Under the pieces are notes generated by a model. It did not search any database and was not told the DNA's origin. It saw only the letters and a program-made list of their open reading frames with translations. The translations under genes and the position numbers were made by a program. A stretch of 58,098 bases of DNA. Source: Bdellovibrionales bacterium. GTDB lineage: Bacteria > Bdellovibrionota > Bdellovibrionia > Bdellovibrionales > UBA1609. The stretch spans positions 1 through 58,098 of the forward strand of contig JBOEFV010000036.1 of the NCBI GenBank assembly GCA_050633065.1, given 5' to 3'. Below, one piece after another: positions 11,609 through 17,895 of this stretch. Position 1 is the first letter of the stretch. Each line of letters begins with the position of its first letter.

Positions 11609-13231
11609 TTAAGATAAGATCTTCTTAACCTCTTCTAAATCCAGACGTGTTGCTAAATGTTCGTATTTAGCAATTTGATGATTCTCTAATGTCTTATCTA
11701 AATCAGACCAGTCATATACTTCTTCATTGAAAAGAGCTGACACTTTCTTAGAATACTCAGGAATTACAGGGCTTAAATAAATAGCCATGTCTCTAAAAAC
11801 ATTAAGAATGCATGTCAAAACTGTCTTCGCTCTCTCAACATCTTCTTTAATACTTTTCCACGGCTGCTTTTCATCAAAGTACCTATTAGCTTCATCAGCA
11901 ATAGATCTTATCTCCTCCATAGCCCTAGCAAAATCTCTATTTTGATAATGTTTTGAGATCACTTCCGATTTAGCCTTTGAAAACTCAACAACTTTTTTGG
12001 CTTCATCATCTAATTCACCCATAAGGCCATCTAACTTCTTGCCAAGCATCTGACCACCACGAGATCCAAGATTGGTGATCTTACCTATTAAATCAGAATT
12101 CACTCTTTGTACAAAGTCTTCAAGGTTTAGATCTATATCATCTAAACCTGAATTTAATTTACACGCGTAATAGTAGCGTAAATAAAGAGGATCAATGTTT
12201 TCTAAATACTTTCTGGCTTTAATAAAAGTCCCTTTTGATTTACTCATCTTCTCACCATTTACTTTTAAAAAGCCATGCACAAAAACACCTGATGGTAACG
12301 TATAATCTGTGGCGCTAAGCATTGAGGGCCAAAAAAGAGAATGAAAGTATATAATATCTTTTCCGATAAAATGATAAATCTTAGCATCTGGATTTTTCCA
12401 GTAATCATCAAAATTCTTATTGTTTTTTTCACACCACTCTTTGGTTGCCGCTATATATCCCACGGGCGCATCCACCCAAACATAAAAGTACTTGTTGTCA
12501 TAACCAGGAATTTGAAAGCCAAAGTAGGGATCATCTCTAGAGATGTCCCAATCCCTTAACTCCCCCTCAAACCACTCCTTAAGCTTATTAGAAACTTCTT
12601 TTGATGTGTGTCCCGGGACCCATTCTTTCAAAAAACTTTGAAAATTTGAAAGCTTAACAAAAACATGATCACTGTCTTTTAAAACTGGTGTGTTTGAGCA
12701 GATTGAACATTTTGGCTCAATCACTTCACTAGTTCCATATGTGGCACCACAGTGATCACAGGAGTCCCCATACTGATCTTCTGACTTACACGATGGGCAG
12801 GTCCCTTTAACAAATCTGTCTGGTAAAAACATTTTGTCATGTTCACAGTACAACTGCTTAATCATTTTTGTTGTGATGTGCCCTTTTTCTTTTAAAGATA
12901 AATAAATTTCTGAAACAAGCTCTTTATTCTCAGGGCTGTTTGTTGATGAATAGTGGTCAAACTCTACACCAAAATCCGCAAAATCTTTTAAATGCTCATC
13001 TAAGCAGTTTGCTACAAGTTTCTCCGGTGTGATCCCCTGATCTCTTGCACTGATCATTATTGGTGTTCCATGAGTGTCGTCACCACAAATGTATATACAA
13101 TCTTCCCCTTTTGACTTCTGGTATCTCACCCAAAAGTCCGTTTGCAGATACTCCACCATATGTCCCAGGTGAAGAGAATTATTCGCATAGGGAAGCGCTG
13201 AGGTTACTATAACAGGGGCTTTTGAAGACAT
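11609..13231 (-). CDS. metG: Methionyl-tRNA synthetase (short form without C-terminal tRNA-binding appendix)
   Basis: 540 aa. HIGH-type ALPYANNSLHLGH, KMSKS motif, and Zn knuckles CPSCKS...CDHCG and CSICS. Confidence 0.95.
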   Translation of the reverse strand: MSSKAPVIVTSALPYANNSLHLGHMVEYLQTDFWVRYQKSKGEDCIYICGDDTHGTPIMISARDQGITPEKLVANCLDEHLKDFADFGVEFDHYSSTNSPENKELVSEIYLSLKEKGHITTKMIKQLYCEHDKMFLPDRFVKGTCPSCKSEDQYGDSCDHCGATYGTSEVIEPKCSICSNTPVLKDSDHVFVKLSNFQSFLKEWVPGHTSKEVSNKLKEWFEGELRDWDISRDDPYFGFQIPGYDNKYFYVWVDAPVGYIAATKEWCEKNNKNFDDYWKNPDAKIYHFIGKDIIYFHSLFWPSMLSATDYTLPSGVFVHGFLKVNGEKMSKSKGTFIKARKYLENIDPLYLRYYYACKLNSGLDDIDLNLEDFVQRVNSDLIGKITNLGSRGGQMLGKKLDGLMGELDDEAKKVVEFSKAKSEVISKHYQNRDFARAMEEIRSIADEANRYFDEKQPWKSIKEDVERAKTVLTCILNVFRDMAIYLSPVIPEYSKKVSALFNEEVYDWSDLDKTLENHQIAKYEHLATRLDLEEVKKILS

Positions 13232-13308
13232 TGCTGCTCTCCTTAGGTGTTTATCTTAATGGGGTAAAGGCTAATGCTTTTTTTTGATTTTTACTAGTCT
13301 ATATTAGG

Positions 13309-14103
13309 CTAATTCATTGGGCCTAATGAAAAAAGCTCCTCATCATGAACGCCCGAAGCTTCTACAAGGCTACTTTCAAATTTAGAAAAAGACCCTCTTT
13401 CTAAACCAAAATACTGGATAAGCTCAATAACCCACCTTGGAACTGATGTGAGAGTTTTAATCTCTAAAACCACACTGTCTGCAGGCATTCCTTTTAAAAA
13501 AGTCTTATAATCATAATTAGCGATATCGTAGTGCCCCGGAACCACATCAAATTTCTTAGATTTACAAAATTTTAAATCTCTATCAAAAGTAATTCGAACG
13601 TACTCATCAAATACTGAAAAGAACGCAAGCCTCCGGTACTGAGTAAAAATCTTAGGCCTTGCGTGAAGCTCTTCAGCCTTTCTGATAAAGTATTTTAAAT
13701 TTTTCTTATCCTCTGCATTAAGCCCCAAAGTTCCATCTGGCCTTTTAAAAACTTCATAAAGGTCTTTAACTTCAACACAGGCTCTAATTTTATCAATCAC
13801 CATTCCTGACTTTTTCTTAACTTCAAAAAAATACGGAGGGTTCTCACCGTCAGCATAAGCCCTGATTCTCAAAGTAAACCTTTTACTCATATCTGATCTT
13901 TTATGATCCAAAAGAAGAAAGTTTGGAGAGTCTAAGTAAAGAGTATTTACCGTGTAGTAACCATCCGGCGCCTTTGCTGAATGGTTGTCTTTTTGGCAGT
14001 AGATTTCAATGTACTCTTCAATCTTAGCCACCATACTCTTAGGAATAATGTACTTTAACTCATACCTTGCAATTTTATTCCTATCTAAGCCACCACTATC
14101 CAC
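13309..14103 (-). CDS. VTC-domain (polyphosphate polymerase-type tunnel domain) protein
   Basis: 264 aa. RYELKYIIP start and alternating basic beta-strand pattern (RIRAY, FFEVKKK, LEIK) typical of the VTC/CYTH-like tunnel fold. Confidence 0.7.
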   Translation of the reverse strand: MDSGGLDRNKIARYELKYIIPKSMVAKIEEYIEIYCQKDNHSAKAPDGYYTVNTLYLDSPNFLLLDHKRSDMSKRFTLRIRAYADGENPPYFFEVKKKSGMVIDKIRACVEVKDLYEVFKRPDGTLGLNAEDKKNLKYFIRKAEELHARPKIFTQYRRLAFFSVFDEYVRITFDRDLKFCKSKKFDVVPGHYDIANYDYKTFLKGMPADSVVLEIKTLTSVPRWVIELIQYFGLERGSFSKFESSLVEASGVHDEELFSLGPMN

Positions 14104-14109
14104 AATAGC

Positions 14110-15114
14110 TTACTCCAACCCGATAAATTCACTTTTCCCAGTTTTCACTGCTAGAAGCTTAATCCTGTTATATAAGAGAGCTCCTTCAGCTTTTAGTTCT
14201 AAAAGCTTATATGAGATCTTAACTGCGTCTAAATAGATTTTAATTTTTTCTTCTGCGCCTGTAGATGTTGATGAAATCATCCTTCTCACCTGAGAGCGTG
14301 ATAAAAATTTTGATTTAAGCTTGTTGTATAGCTTCTTTTTAAATTTAAGCTCATCAAAGGCCTGTTTAAGGCTCAGCTCACTCTGCGCCTTATTCTTTTT
14401 AATTTTGTATTGCTCAAGAGCCATCTTGTTTTTTGCCTCAACCCTTTGGCCTGTAAACCCTAAAGGCAAGCTAATTCCAAGGCGAGCCACTGTGTTGTTT
14501 TCACTTGAGTCCTGATAGCTCCCTCTAACTCCAAGCTCTAGAAACTTTATAATACCACTTTTTGAGTTTTGTTCGTCAGCCACCAAAGAAACCCCTGTAT
14601 TAGCTCTATCATTAACAGCCTTTAAAAGCTTTGCTTCATTAAGATCTTTTTTAAAAGCCACACCTAGTTGAATCTTCTTGTCTGATGAGGCTTTTGACTC
14701 TGCCTGAACCAAAACTTCATTTACATCTATGTCTATTGAGCTTCTTGCTGCCGACGGGTGTGATTTTAAATATTCATTATAAGCTGAGTAAGCGTTTACA
14801 AGATCTTTTTTCCAGTTTTTAGCAATTTCCACTTTAGAGTTTCTGTAAGATCCAAAAATTTTATTCTCTGCTGTTAGATATAAAATCTGCGCTCTTTCTT
14901 CTTCTTCACTCATATTCAAAAGCTTATTTGTGGCTCCGGACTTTAATGAACCCAATTGGAATCTAAGTGTGTTGTTAAACTCTTCATCATCAAAGTTATA
15001 CTGCGTCCTTAATTCAACATCTTGAATCAAATTACCTGCAACCGTCCCTTTAGAGGCTGCAAAAGCTCCAAAAGAAAAACTAATAAAAAGAAGAATATTA
15101 ATCGCTAAACTCAA
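14110..15114 (-). CDS. Secreted protein, possibly a short TolC/OEP-like outer-membrane factor
   Basis: 334 aa with a signal peptide (ILLFISFSFGAFAAS). Alternating coiled-coil and beta segments. The C-terminal block IYLDAVKISYKLLELKAEGALLYNRIKLL resembles the end of OEP repeats. Weak call. Confidence 0.35.
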   Translation of the reverse strand: MSLAINILLFISFSFGAFAASKGTVAGNLIQDVELRTQYNFDDEEFNNTLRFQLGSLKSGATNKLLNMSEEEERAQILYLTAENKIFGSYRNSKVEIAKNWKKDLVNAYSAYNEYLKSHPSAARSSIDIDVNEVLVQAESKASSDKKIQLGVAFKKDLNEAKLLKAVNDRANTGVSLVADEQNSKSGIIKFLELGVRGSYQDSSENNTVARLGISLPLGFTGQRVEAKNKMALEQYKIKKNKAQSELSLKQAFDELKFKKKLYNKLKSKFLSRSQVRRMISSTSTGAEEKIKIYLDAVKISYKLLELKAEGALLYNRIKLLAVKTGKSEFIGLE

Positions 15115-15946
15115 CTAAAACCCTCTCACCTGTTATAAAATTTGTTTCATCTGTTATTTTAACTAAAATCTCTTTTCCATATACTGTGTCGTAACCAGTT
15201 TTTTGAAATCTCGCCGGAAGCTCTCTCACCTCAGTTCCTATTTGAAAAACCTTACCTGCTCCGCCTCTAGCGCCACTAGATCTGTATATATCAACCTCTT
15301 GCCCCACACTCACTCTGGCCGCAGAGGTGTCATTTTCAAGAACATAAGATCTCACAATTGTAGCCTTTTTTTCTGTTACAAAAGCAACAGGGTTAAAGCT
15401 TGGCACTGTTTCACCCAAAACAAAGCTTAAGTTACCAACATAGCCATCAAATGGCGCTGCAACCTCAAGCTTATCAATTTGTTTTTCTACTATACTTTTA
15501 ATCTCCATAAGAGACTGTAGCTCTAACTCAAGCAAAGTTTTTTCTTTCTTTTTTTTGATGTGCCCTACAAGCTTGGCTAAATCTTTGACGTTGCTGTTGT
15601 AAAGTCTGTACTCTGAAAATTTTTGATAAAGCTCTTTATTTACCATTGCAAGATCATATGAAAGTTTTGAGCTTGAAAGCTGAAGTATCAAATCACCTTT
15701 TTTAACTTCCTGCCCTGATGAAGTTAAAATTTTCTCAACAATAACTGGGTGCTCAAACTGCACTCTGTACTGATAAGCCTGTGTAACACCCATGAAGCTG
15801 TAGCTATACTGCTTTGCAAATGAGTAATACAACAAAAGAGCAATACACAAGCACCAACAAGTCACAAGAAATGAGTTGTATCTTGCAAAAGAAATTAAGA
15901 ACGCCTCTTCTTTTTTAGTCTGTAATTTATTCTTGCCCCAGTTCAT
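15098..15946 (-). CDS. HlyD-family periplasmic adaptor (membrane fusion protein)
   Basis: 282 aa with a single N-terminal TM (FLVTCWCLCIALLLYY). Lipoyl-like halves VEKILTSSGQEVKKGDLILQL and VAAPFDGYVGNLSFVLGETV are separated by a coiled coil. Confidence 0.6.
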   Translation of the reverse strand: MNWGKNKLQTKKEEAFLISFARYNSFLVTCWCLCIALLLYYSFAKQYSYSFMGVTQAYQYRVQFEHPVIVEKILTSSGQEVKKGDLILQLSSSKLSYDLAMVNKELYQKFSEYRLYNSNVKDLAKLVGHIKKKKEKTLLELELQSLMEIKSIVEKQIDKLEVAAPFDGYVGNLSFVLGETVPSFNPVAFVTEKKATIVRSYVLENDTSAARVSVGQEVDIYRSSGARGGAGKVFQIGTEVRELPARFQKTGYDTVYGKEILVKITDETNFITGERVLVEFSD

Positions 15947-16662
15947 TACATCTCCACTTCTTGGTCTCTAACCAATATGGAAATTCCACTTACACCATCA
16001 ATTTCTTTTAACTCTGAAACCAGATCGTTCTTACCGTATGTTTTTTTGATTTTAACATGGTAAACATAGTTTAAAAGGTCTCCTTGAGATGCCTGCCTCA
16101 TCGCAACCAAAGAATATCTTTTGCAGATCTTCTCCAAACTCAAACTTACTGCACTTTTGTTATCTGATGAGCCCTGTAGTGAAAACTTTAAAACACCATC
16201 AAATCTTGCTGTTTGAGTGAAGGGAACTTTTGATAAAACTAGAATTGTTCCAACAAATGCACCCAGTCCGAGAAAAGACACCGCTATAGCGCCAACACCA
16301 CATGAAATCCCCAGTGCCAAACTAGCAAATAAGAAAAACATATCTCTAGGGTCTCTGATGTTTGATCTAAACCTAAGAATTGAGAATGCACCCATCATAC
16401 CAATACCACGAGCTAAGCTTCCATCAATTGCCATCATTGCAATTGCTGTAACAATCGGGCTTAATACCAAAGAGTGCACAAAGCTTTTTGAGAACGATAG
16501 CCCCTGGAATGTTCCAACATACAGCGCTGCTATGGACGAGCCCACAACAAAAGCCATTAAAAATCCCATAATAGATTCTACAGGGGTTCCTGTGAGTAAA
16601 TATGCTGCTCCACCTGTCATATAATAGACGCTCCTTATTACTAGATTGGAAGTTTCTACCAT
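15946..16662 (-). CDS. DUF4956-family membrane protein (usual partner of bacterial VTC-domain proteins)
   Basis: 238 aa with 4-5 helices followed by a soluble tail. Signature-like GAFSILRFRSNIRDPRDMFFLF. Stop and next start share TAATG. Confidence 0.7.
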   Translation of the reverse strand: MVETSNLVIRSVYYMTGGAAYLLTGTPVESIMGFLMAFVVGSSIAALYVGTFQGLSFSKSFVHSLVLSPIVTAIAMMAIDGSLARGIGMMGAFSILRFRSNIRDPRDMFFLFASLALGISCGVGAIAVSFLGLGAFVGTILVLSKVPFTQTARFDGVLKFSLQGSSDNKSAVSLSLEKICKRYSLVAMRQASQGDLLNYVYHVKIKKTYGKNDLVSELKEIDGVSGISILVRDQEVEM

Positions 16663-16755: not shown

Positions 16756-17895
16756 TTATATACTGCCAAGCTTTTTAAAAGCCCATTGCAGGCCCTTATC
16801 CTTCTTTAAATTTTTAACTGGATAGATTTCTTCTTTTTCTTTTGGGTACTTAAAGTCTGGCTCTACTCCATTTTTATCAATCATTTTACCAGAAGCTGTA
16901 AAATATCTAGCAATTGTAAGCTTAATCCCCCCCTGATCCCTTGGAAGAGGTATAACTGATTGAACCGAGCCTTTACCATAAGTCTTTTTTCCTAAAACCT
17001 TTGCCCTTTTAAGGTCTTTTAAAGCGCTTGCTACAATTTCACTCGCACTTGCACTAGAGCCATCAACTAAAACATAAAGTGGCACTTTGGGGTAAAGAGT
17101 GTTGTCCTTTTTTGCTAAGTTCACTTCATCGTTTGGATTTCGTGATTTTGTAACCACTATAACGCCTTTACTCACAAAAAGATCAACCACATCAATAGCC
17201 TCACTCAAAAGCCCTCCAGGATTATTTCTAAGATCAATCAATAGCTTATTAAATTTTTCCTCTTTTAAAATTTTAAGCATTTCTTTTTTTGTATCCGTTG
17301 AAAAACTGGTTACTCTGATAGTGAGAAGTCCTTTATCATTTAAGACTTTTCTTACAGGATTTATTTTTATTTTTTTTCTTCTTACAAACGTCTCTACTAG
17401 TTTGTCTTCACCAGATCTCAAAATTGACAACTTTATTTTCCTGTTTCTTTTCTTGGTAAAAAGATCAGAAGCTTCAACAAAATCTAAGACATTAAGTTTA
17501 ACATTATTAACTTTGACAATTTGATCTCCAGGTAAAATTCCCGCATTCCATGCTGGCGAATCCTCAACAACACTCACAACAACAAGGTTTCTTTTCTTTA
17601 ATGTTAGCTCAAACCCAATACCATTAAAGCCCCCGTCAGTTTCATTTTTGAATTTCTTAAAGCTTTTTTTTGTCAAATACCCTGAGTATGGATCAAGCCG
17701 ACCCAGCAATCCTCTTACTGAAGCTGAAACCATTTTTTCTATATCAAGCTTTTCTACATAATGCTCTTCAACCAGGTTAAAAACTTGTGTGTATATTCTT
17801 AATTTATCATATCTTCCCTCTGAATACCCCAGAGAAACTCCAAAAATTAAGTAGCTAAACACCGCACCAAAAACAAAAGTCATAAAATATTTCAT
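16756..17895 (-). CDS. S41 carboxy-terminal processing peptidase with PDZ domain
   Basis: 379 aa with an N-terminal anchor. PDZ segment (VVEDSPAWNAGILPGDQIVKVN). Catalytic blocks VDGSSASASEIVASAL and KTYGKGSVQ. Confidence 0.85.
   Translation of the reverse strand: MKYFMTFVFGAVFSYLIFGVSLGYSEGRYDKLRIYTQVFNLVEEHYVEKLDIEKMVSASVRGLLGRLDPYSGYLTKKSFKKFKNETDGGFNGIGFELTLKKRNLVVVSVVEDSPAWNAGILPGDQIVKVNNVKLNVLDFVEASDLFTKKRNRKIKLSILRSGEDKLVETFVRRKKIKINPVRKVLNDKGLLTIRVTSFSTDTKKEMLKILKEEKFNKLLIDLRNNPGGLLSEAIDVVDLFVSKGVIVVTKSRNPNDEVNLAKKDNTLYPKVPLYVLVDGSSASASEIVASALKDLKRAKVLGKKTYGKGSVQSVIPLPRDQGGIKLTIARYFTASGKMIDKNGVEPDFKYPKEKEEIYPVKNLKKDKGLQWAFKKLGSI

Follow-up and report, generated by a model that had tools for sequence, protein, structure and literature searches.

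A four-gene VTC/DUF4956 cassette with a periplasmic adaptor and a diverged TolC-like protein in a Bdellovibrionales bacterium, a candidate route for polyphosphate export

Introduction

Reviews name VTC as the eukaryotic polyphosphate polymerase and PPK as the prokaryotic one. In the yeast VTC complex (Vtc4/Vtc3/Vtc1; PDB 7ytj and 8i6v) the tunnel of Vtc4 lies over a channel lined by rings of lysine and arginine, and synthesis of the chain is coupled to its translocation. A catalytic domain of the same family (PF09359), with all triphosphate/Mn ligands kept, is encoded in the stretch of DNA analysed here, 58,098 nucleotides of an uncultured Bdellovibrionales bacterium (hereafter the window), where it belongs to a cassette of four genes together with a DUF4956 inner-membrane protein, a HlyD-type periplasmic adaptor and a TolC-like protein of 334 amino acids (aa). 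As in yeast, the enzyme has a small polytopic membrane protein as its genetic partner, and the logic of synthesis-coupled translocation would carry over. The SPX domain and the DUF202-type (PF02656) transmembrane (TM) domain of the yeast complex, however, were found in none of the four products by Pfam scan; the membrane partner is DUF4956, which is unrelated and MgtC-like, and the destination would be the outside of a diderm cell, not the lumen of a vacuole.

The pair of VTC and DUF4956 (the latter with four TM segments and an ACT domain, MgtC-like) also occurs in the VTC/DUF4956/CotH clusters of Gram-positive and Bacteroidota type, for example downstream of the pel operon of Streptococcus intermedius and in NELoc-1 of Clostridium perfringens. 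A 2024 preprint on S. intermedius describes the CotH, VTC-like and 4TM+ACT MgtC-like genes after pel, leaves their function open and suggests that polyphosphate stays cytoplasmic. Compared with these clusters, the window adds an adaptor and an outer-membrane factor, comes from a genome in which no CotH was found and carries a DUF4956 protein that falls into a separate clade defined by its linkage. The CotH form is also present in Bdellovibrionota relatives, and loci of Pontiella combine a giant protein, made of lamin-tail domains (LTD) and CotH, with the four-gene core.

The other two members of the cassette recall AcrAB-TolC, MacAB-TolC, EmrAB-TolC and HlyBD-TolC, with which they share a TM-anchored adaptor of HlyD type and an adjacent gene for an outer-membrane factor of TolC fold. 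Passages of a Chem Rev review (PMC8277102) describe tripartite systems as using ABC, RND or MFS transporters. Unlike such tripartite and type I systems, the cassette has no adjacent ABC, RND, MFS or PET gene and none is conserved in the related loci, and its outer-membrane factor, which falls short of TolC by about 100 residues, escapes detection by the OEP hidden Markov model (HMM). Secretion without a separate pump is familiar from the synthase-dependent systems for cellulose (Bcs), alginate, Pel and poly-N-acetylglucosamine, in which the chain is propelled across dedicated components of the envelope by its own polymerisation at the inner membrane. The proteins of those systems are unrelated to the present ones, comprising glycosyltransferases, TPR scaffolds and beta-barrel porins in place of an adaptor/TolC duct, and the polymer here would be inorganic.

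Our literature search returned no paper in which VTC or DUF4956 is connected to an adaptor or to TolC, nor one that describes a bacterial polyphosphate exporter. An earlier note on this DNA, made from its letters, had read the locus as a conduit for export across the envelope. Here we report that the four parts are strongly conserved as a unit, and we propose, with about even confidence, that the four genes encode one envelope-spanning assembly for polymerisation-driven export of polyphosphate across both membranes.

Results

Four tightly spaced genes on one strand

The cassette is made up of four consecutive open reading frames (ORFs) of the ORF listing, all on the minus strand and together spanning 13309-16662 (Table 1). 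The stop of the DUF4956 gene and the start of the adaptor gene are shared in GGAGATGTAATG, with TAATG at 15944-15948, the adaptor ORF and the ORF of the 334-aa protein overlap by 17 nt, and a gap of 6 nt separates the stop of the latter from the start of the VTC gene. On re-reading the sequence the three junctions given in the earlier note were reproduced, and a purine-rich, Shine-Dalgarno-like stretch was seen upstream of every start in the cassette. The same note had stated that no ABC, RND or MFS pump gene is present, and the ORFs of the window together with a Pfam scan indeed yielded none near the cassette.

Conservation of the cassette as a unit

Among 61 near genomes (the 60 nearest and the window's own), a VTC domain is present in 15 and the family of the 334-aa protein in two, the window's own genome and one congener. 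Three relatives of the 334-aa protein all lie in the same four-gene cassette, two of them between the same flanks as in the window and the third (L004/L005) between an unrelated CBS-domain gene and DnaJ. Two loci (L026 and L027) encode DUF4956, an adaptor, a secreted coiled-coil protein of 391-396 aa and VTC, one of them in permuted order; the remaining VTC/DUF4956 loci of the near genomes carry CotH and/or beta-helix proteins and no adaptor.

For a wider survey, a DUF4956 alignment was scanned against species-representative genomes, which gave 55 loci; the survey is centred on this DUF4956 subfamily, and other VTC systems lie outside its scope. As labelled, the loci come from Bdellovibrionota, Kiritimatiellota (many from Pontiella, including the isolate P. 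sulfatireligans F21), Lentisphaerota and Verrucomicrobiota, with one metagenome-assembled genome (MAG) each labelled Planctomycetota, Sphaerotilus and Pseudomonadota. According to the gene maps all four parts occur together in 45 of the 55, these complete loci belonging to Bdellovibrionota, Kiritimatiellota, Lentisphaerota, Verrucomicrobiota and the Sphaerotilus-labelled MAG, and the incomplete ones are mostly cut by contig ends or contain degraded reading frames. With V for VTC, D for DUF4956, M for the adaptor and O for the outer-membrane factor, the 46 loci first scored as complete were divided into V-D-M-O (36, one with a split DUF4956), D-M-O-V (8) and M-O-V-D (2). The Planctomycetota locus (L087), at first taken as V-D-M-O, was rejected as a false positive on finding that its downstream gene is an amino-acid kinase, lowering the count from 46 to 45.

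The adaptor gene is invariably followed by one for a protein with a signal peptide (~330-750 aa), the two genes commonly overlapping by 4-22 nt and often by 18-22 nt, and the flanks differ widely among related loci, with no conserved pump gene. The adaptor and the TolC-like protein had been described in the earlier note as inserted between the other two genes, which holds for some Bdellovibrionota; most loci have the order VTC-DUF4956-adaptor-outer-membrane factor instead. The note had also allowed that the arrangement might be unique to this genome. It is found in Bdellovibrionota and in phyla of the Planctomycetota-Verrucomicrobiota-Chlamydiota (PVC) group, and it is far beyond chance, with all four parts together in 45 of the 55 related loci.

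In a tree of DUF4956 proteins, those linked to an adaptor form one clade (support 99/90), with the CotH-only proteins outside it. The clade contains 53 linked rows and four unlinked ones, of which two are on truncated contigs, one is from L084 and one is a long branch. Between VTC, DUF4956 and adaptor the pairwise distances show correlations of r 0.97-0.99, which are compatible with co-inheritance and carry little weight, since shared species history would contribute to them too.

The VTC gene is absent from three of the four other species of the genus. In one of these congeners (G003) the gene of the S41 peptidase is followed directly by metG, and the whole cassette is missing from the syntenic site. 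The spacer between the two genes there (L106:8575-8956, 382 nt) still contains a degenerate but alignable stretch of about 260 nt with in-frame stops (compared with window 13232-13560), left over from the 3′ end of VTC, indicating that the cassette was ancestral in this congener and was deleted as a block.

These data bear on the possibility that the adaptor and the TolC-like protein serve an ABC, RND or MFS pump encoded elsewhere, in which case their adjacency to VTC and DUF4956 would reflect co-regulation or chance. Pairs of adaptor and outer-membrane protein are modular, the contact of the adaptor with DUF4956 is one that we infer, and the genome contains four other canonical OEP factors, presumably with their pumps. 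Such an arrangement is nevertheless hard to reconcile with a cassette kept across at least two distant lineages (Bdellovibrionota and PVC), in three gene orders and between unrelated flanks, with the single clade of adaptor-linked DUF4956 proteins, or with the loss of the entire cassette together in the congener. The DUF4956 stop, moreover, overlaps the adaptor start here and the two genes are close in most loci, while the adaptor and outer-membrane-factor families of the window type have about eight members and were found in this cassette in four of four contexts checked. We therefore consider a distant pump very improbable.

A VTC domain of the Vtc4 type

Profile searches agreed with the earlier note in its naming of the VTC, DUF4956 and adaptor proteins. 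The VTC product matches PF09359 with 132.7 bits against a cut-off of 23 (E 2e-38, profile positions 2-230 of 235), and it is placed in the cytoplasm because it has neither a TM segment nor a signal peptide. In an alignment of 20 bacterial VTC proteins, comprising both adaptor-linked and CotH-linked ones, the residues R13, E15, K17, D58, R79, R81, Y83, E94, K96, K105, Y156, R158, D174, E214, K216 and K241 are invariant. Searched against the PDB, the bacterial profile retrieved yeast Vtc4 at E 7e-21, its best matches being to Vtc4 and not to CYTH hydrolases.

The comparison aligned K17, R79, R81, K96 and Y156 of the window protein with K200, R264, R266, K281 and Y359 of Vtc4, and R158, E214, S240 and K241 with R361, E426, S457 and K458. 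All nine triphosphate/Mn ligands of Vtc4 are thus retained, as invariant or conserved columns, and the loss of tunnel Lys/Arg residues that the earlier note had envisaged was not seen. In yeast these ligands bind triphosphate/Mn2+ and mutating them lowers polyphosphate, and Vtc2 and Vtc3, which are inactive, have another residue in place of K458 (bioRxiv 10.1101/2023.01.27.525886). By alignment, then, the protein is a stand-alone domain of the catalytic Vtc4 type with a predicted intact catalytic site.

No other candidate for this activity was found in the genome. Neither PPK1 nor PPK2 nor CotH was detected in it, absence being soft evidence in a draft MAG that is 97% complete, so that VTC is the sole candidate polyphosphate synthase found in the genome. 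The genome does contain two Ppx/GppA genes, at C80:2748-3575 and C4:21651-22091.

The DUF4956 membrane protein

DUF4956 was matched above its gathering score (PF16316, 45.4 bits against 30.6). The true start of the gene is more likely ATG 16620, giving a protein of 224 aa, since AAGGAG lies 8 nt upstream of this codon and all close homologues are 224 aa long. Hydropathy analysis indicated three strong TM segments and two amphipathic helices, and the AlphaFold (AF2) model, built on an alignment of 44 homologues (predicted local distance difference test, pLDDT, 80.7), has five helices in 13-131 and a beta-alpha-beta-beta-alpha-beta domain at 142-217. The C-terminal domain gave weak ACT/ferredoxin-like matches in Foldseek. 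An invariant RFR motif and nearly invariant Asp residues sit on the amphipathic helices, and by the positive-inside rule this Arg-rich motif, between the two helices, is probably at the cytoplasmic face. Similarity to MgtC is weak and below the cut-offs (PF02308, 15.7 against 31.4; NF007431, 21.1 against 214), the likeness being limited to the overall build of a TM domain followed by an ACT-like C-terminus.

The periplasmic adaptor

The adaptor scores above the cut-off for HlyD_3 (25.8 bits against 22.2) and below it for HlyD_D23 (28.4) and TIGR01730 (RND_mfp, 47.6 bits, E 1e-12). Biotin_lipoyl matches at 70-98, and split lipoyl half-motifs are present. A single TM helix (26-44) is located by hydropathy behind a short basic cytoplasmic tail, and the remainder is predicted from sequence to consist of the split lipoyl halves, a short alpha-hairpin and a beta-barrel, with no space for a membrane-proximal domain. 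The close family has seven members (68-90% mutual identity) and one weak distant match; relatives of the adaptor carry PF25973 (BSH_CzcB).

Adaptors of about 580-620 aa, double the 282 aa of the window's, were observed in some cassettes of Pseudobdellovibrionaceae (L044:7605-9428, L065:7551-9338, L080 and L081), and their extra C-terminal part gave no Pfam match.

A diverged TolC-like outer-membrane factor

The 334-aa protein is made with a signal peptide (AFA/AS), and no family of Pfam or NCBIfam matched it at E 0.1, OEP (PF02321) included. Its family is tiny, with about 8 proteins found among 5.8 billion and, by a full HMMER profile search, 7 among 1.84 billion representatives. The AF2 model, built on this 8-sequence alignment (pLDDT 80.3; predicted TM-score, pTM, 0.70), is composed of two repeats of a beta-hairpin and long helices with four strands per protomer, the strands lying at 30-54 and 189-214 and the helices at 60-118, 221-269 and 287-321 (the longest 50-59 residues). 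When the model was searched against the PDB with Foldseek, the top 44 matches were all outer-membrane factors (TolC, ST50, SilC, CusC, MtrE and OprM), with E down to 2e-8, probability 1.0 and TM-scores of 0.41-0.57.

By profile-profile comparison the protein shares homology with its positional counterparts in the other Bdellovibrionota loci (hhalign 95%, E 3.8e-8). A single-sequence hhalign of the protein with its L026/L027 partners was not significant, nor was a profile-profile hhalign of its family with the OEP-type partners of PVC. The same-position genes of the PVC-type loci L077, L089, L067, L086, L068, L082 and L047 encode OEP proteins (PF02321, 39-88 bits), and the post-adaptor protein of Pontiella, marginal on this profile (21.4 bits against a cut-off of 22), enters the OEP group by iteration.

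Because the identification comes from the structure model and from positional equivalence, and not from an HMM, the TolC-like assignment of the earlier note holds for fold and position and lacks a profile score. The model points to a very diverged, shortened TolC-like outer-membrane factor, of a length that compares with about 430 residues for usual ones. As the genome has four other ordinary outer-membrane factors of OEP type and the 334-aa protein is the fifth, it is best regarded, on the modelled fold, as a dedicated and highly diverged one.

Flanking genes and additional cluster members

The cassette lies between genes for an S41/CtpA peptidase and metG (Table 1).

Table 1. Positions of the cassette genes and their neighbours in the window
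Feature	Position	Strand	Remark
DUF4956 membrane protein	15946-16662	minus	ORF listed at 238 aa
Adaptor, HlyD type	15098-15946	minus	282 aa
TolC-like 334-aa protein	14110-15114	minus	TTG start
VTC-domain protein	13309-14103	minus	GTG start, 264 aa
S41/CtpA peptidase flank	16756-17895		cassette neighbour
metG flank	11609-13231		cassette neighbour

Some related loci include further genes. Beside the four-gene core of P. sulfatireligans F21 (L054:1216-6111) and of L061:9974-13882 stands a gene for a giant secreted LTD+CotH protein; this Kiritimatiellota protein contains four lamin-tail domains and a CotH kinase domain in 1302-1631 aa, and in L054 its gene overlaps the VTC start. L027:4079-7793 and L041:9766-13239, the nearest Bdellovibrionota type other than that of the window, have three extra genes between or beside the VTC gene and the DUF4956-adaptor-outer-membrane-factor genes, encoding a calcineurin-like metallophosphoesterase, a secreted protein of ~220 aa and a secreted protein of 509 aa without a Pfam match. 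The metallophosphoesterase was confirmed by Pfam in L041, and its counterpart in L027 (392 aa) is a putative one.

Discussion

The predicted locations of the four products form a chain from the cytoplasm to the outer membrane: a soluble VTC enzyme, a polytopic DUF4956 protein, an adaptor with one TM helix and an outer-membrane factor with a signal peptide. In the mechanism that we propose, the cytoplasmic VTC-type tunnel enzyme would take the gamma-phosphate of ATP and build a chain of inorganic polyphosphate. Docked on a DUF4956 oligomer, it would deliver the growing chain into DUF4956, whose invariant Arg-rich motif would be the counterpart of the positive rings in the yeast VTC channel. The TM-anchored HlyD-type adaptor would join DUF4956 to a trimeric, miniaturised TolC-like channel, and the polymer would pass through both membranes and the periplasm between them in a single path. 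The driving force would be polymerisation itself, on the pattern of the VTC polymerase-translocase of yeast and of the synthase-dependent systems that secrete exopolymers, and with this source of energy the absence of an ABC, RND or MFS pump would be explained.

Several observations weigh against polyphosphate export by this cassette. The beta-1 motif R-x-E-x-K of the bacterial VTC proteins carries the invariant Glu E15 in 20 of 20 sequences, where Vtc4 has Thr198. This feature resembles the ExExK motif of the hydrolytic triphosphate tunnel metalloenzymes (TTM/CYTH). The difference may reflect a metal arrangement or a chemistry other than that of Vtc4, and polymerase chemistry is therefore likely, not certain. 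No demonstrated activity for any bacterial VTC-domain or DUF4956 protein was retrieved by our literature search, and the membrane domain of DUF4956 has no PDB match by Foldseek and no known transporter fold. The isoelectric point and net charge of the outer-membrane factor were considered as a sign of an anion duct and rejected: the window type is basic, as are the genome's four ordinary outer-membrane factors, and the PVC partners are acidic, so that bulk charge does not indicate an anion duct. A scan for promoters and terminators gave sites fewer than or equal to those in shuffled sequence, leaving the ends of the operon undefined. Lastly, many VTC/DUF4956/CotH loci of diderms lack both adaptor and outer-membrane factor, and exceptions occur even inside the adaptor-linked clade, where the untruncated Lentisphaerota locus L084:6057-7621 has VTC and DUF4956 only and L087:2852-5842 reads V-D-M with an aspartokinase-like gene next and no adjacent outer-membrane factor.

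Part of this evidence would suit an envelope-spanning system with a cargo other than exported polyphosphate. DUF4956 would then act in ion or phosphate homeostasis in the manner of MgtC, VTC would be a triphosphatase or sensor, and the duct would carry cations, small anions (phosphate, pyrophosphate) or another product. The weak MgtC similarity of DUF4956, with its ACT-like and typically ligand-sensing C-terminus, and the extra Glu at the T198 position are in keeping with such a role, as is the inclusion of hydrolases among the TTM enzymes in the pertinent passages of PMC9582702. Every polymerisation residue of Vtc4, the K458 equivalent among them, is nonetheless retained, and the closest PDB sequences are Vtc4 rather than CYTH hydrolases; MgtC itself is not a known transporter, and since porins pass small ions, a duct of TolC size would be superfluous for them. 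We regard a different cargo as unlikely and, judging from the retained residues, polymerisation of polyphosphate by the bacterial VTC domain as likely.

The loci that lack the adaptor, the outer-membrane factor or both, inside the clade as well as among diderms generally, raise the alternative that polyphosphate is delivered only to the periplasm or the cell envelope, as a cation store or buffer, while the adaptor and the TolC-like protein stabilise or regulate the machinery. The shortness of the outer-membrane factor in the window (334 aa against about 430) could be read in the same way. Four strands per protomer and helices of 50-59 residues, on the other hand, are the standard architecture of an exit duct, and about 45 loci have an outer-membrane gene behind that of the adaptor, which makes delivery to the periplasm only quite unlikely in our opinion.

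Polymerisation-driven export across both membranes, to which we return, is partly supported in the form of the export conduit that the earlier note had drawn, and none of the three refuting outcomes listed in that note was encountered in the parts that were examined. The function of DUF4956 as conduit or channel, its binding to the adaptor, the physical assembly of the four proteins, polyphosphate as the product and its export are steps that we infer. A combination of an adaptor/TolC envelope machine with a VTC polymerase-translocase would be the best available interpretation of the cassette. Whether it amounts to a fourth class of adaptor/TolC machine, in which a polymerisation-driven VTC/DUF4956 engine secretes an inorganic polymer and is the genome's only polyphosphate synthase, is a tentative and somewhat doubtful extension of this proposal.

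What the window adds to the wider family is a Bdellovibrionales form of D-M-O-V order with a shortened outer-membrane factor invisible to HMMs, in a genome where no CotH or PPK genes were found, and the remnant of a block deletion in a congener. It also illustrates that outer-membrane factors can diverge past HMM detection and that surveys relying on PF02321 miss such forms.

If the proposal is true, the adaptor/TolC paradigm would gain a new type of inner-membrane partner, and DUF4956 and the bacterial VTC domain would receive their first functions. Bacterial polyphosphate is usually viewed as a PPK1/PPK2 product kept in the cytoplasm, and the cassette would offer a route to the surface or the medium, one that is compact, made of four genes, testable and found in Pontiella strains that have been cultured, among them P. 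sulfatireligans F21 (L054). Exported polyphosphate could chelate divalent cations, for example weakening the outer membrane of prey or of a competitor, and in CotH-bearing relatives such as Pontiella it could be an extracellular phosphoryl donor for secreted CotH kinases.

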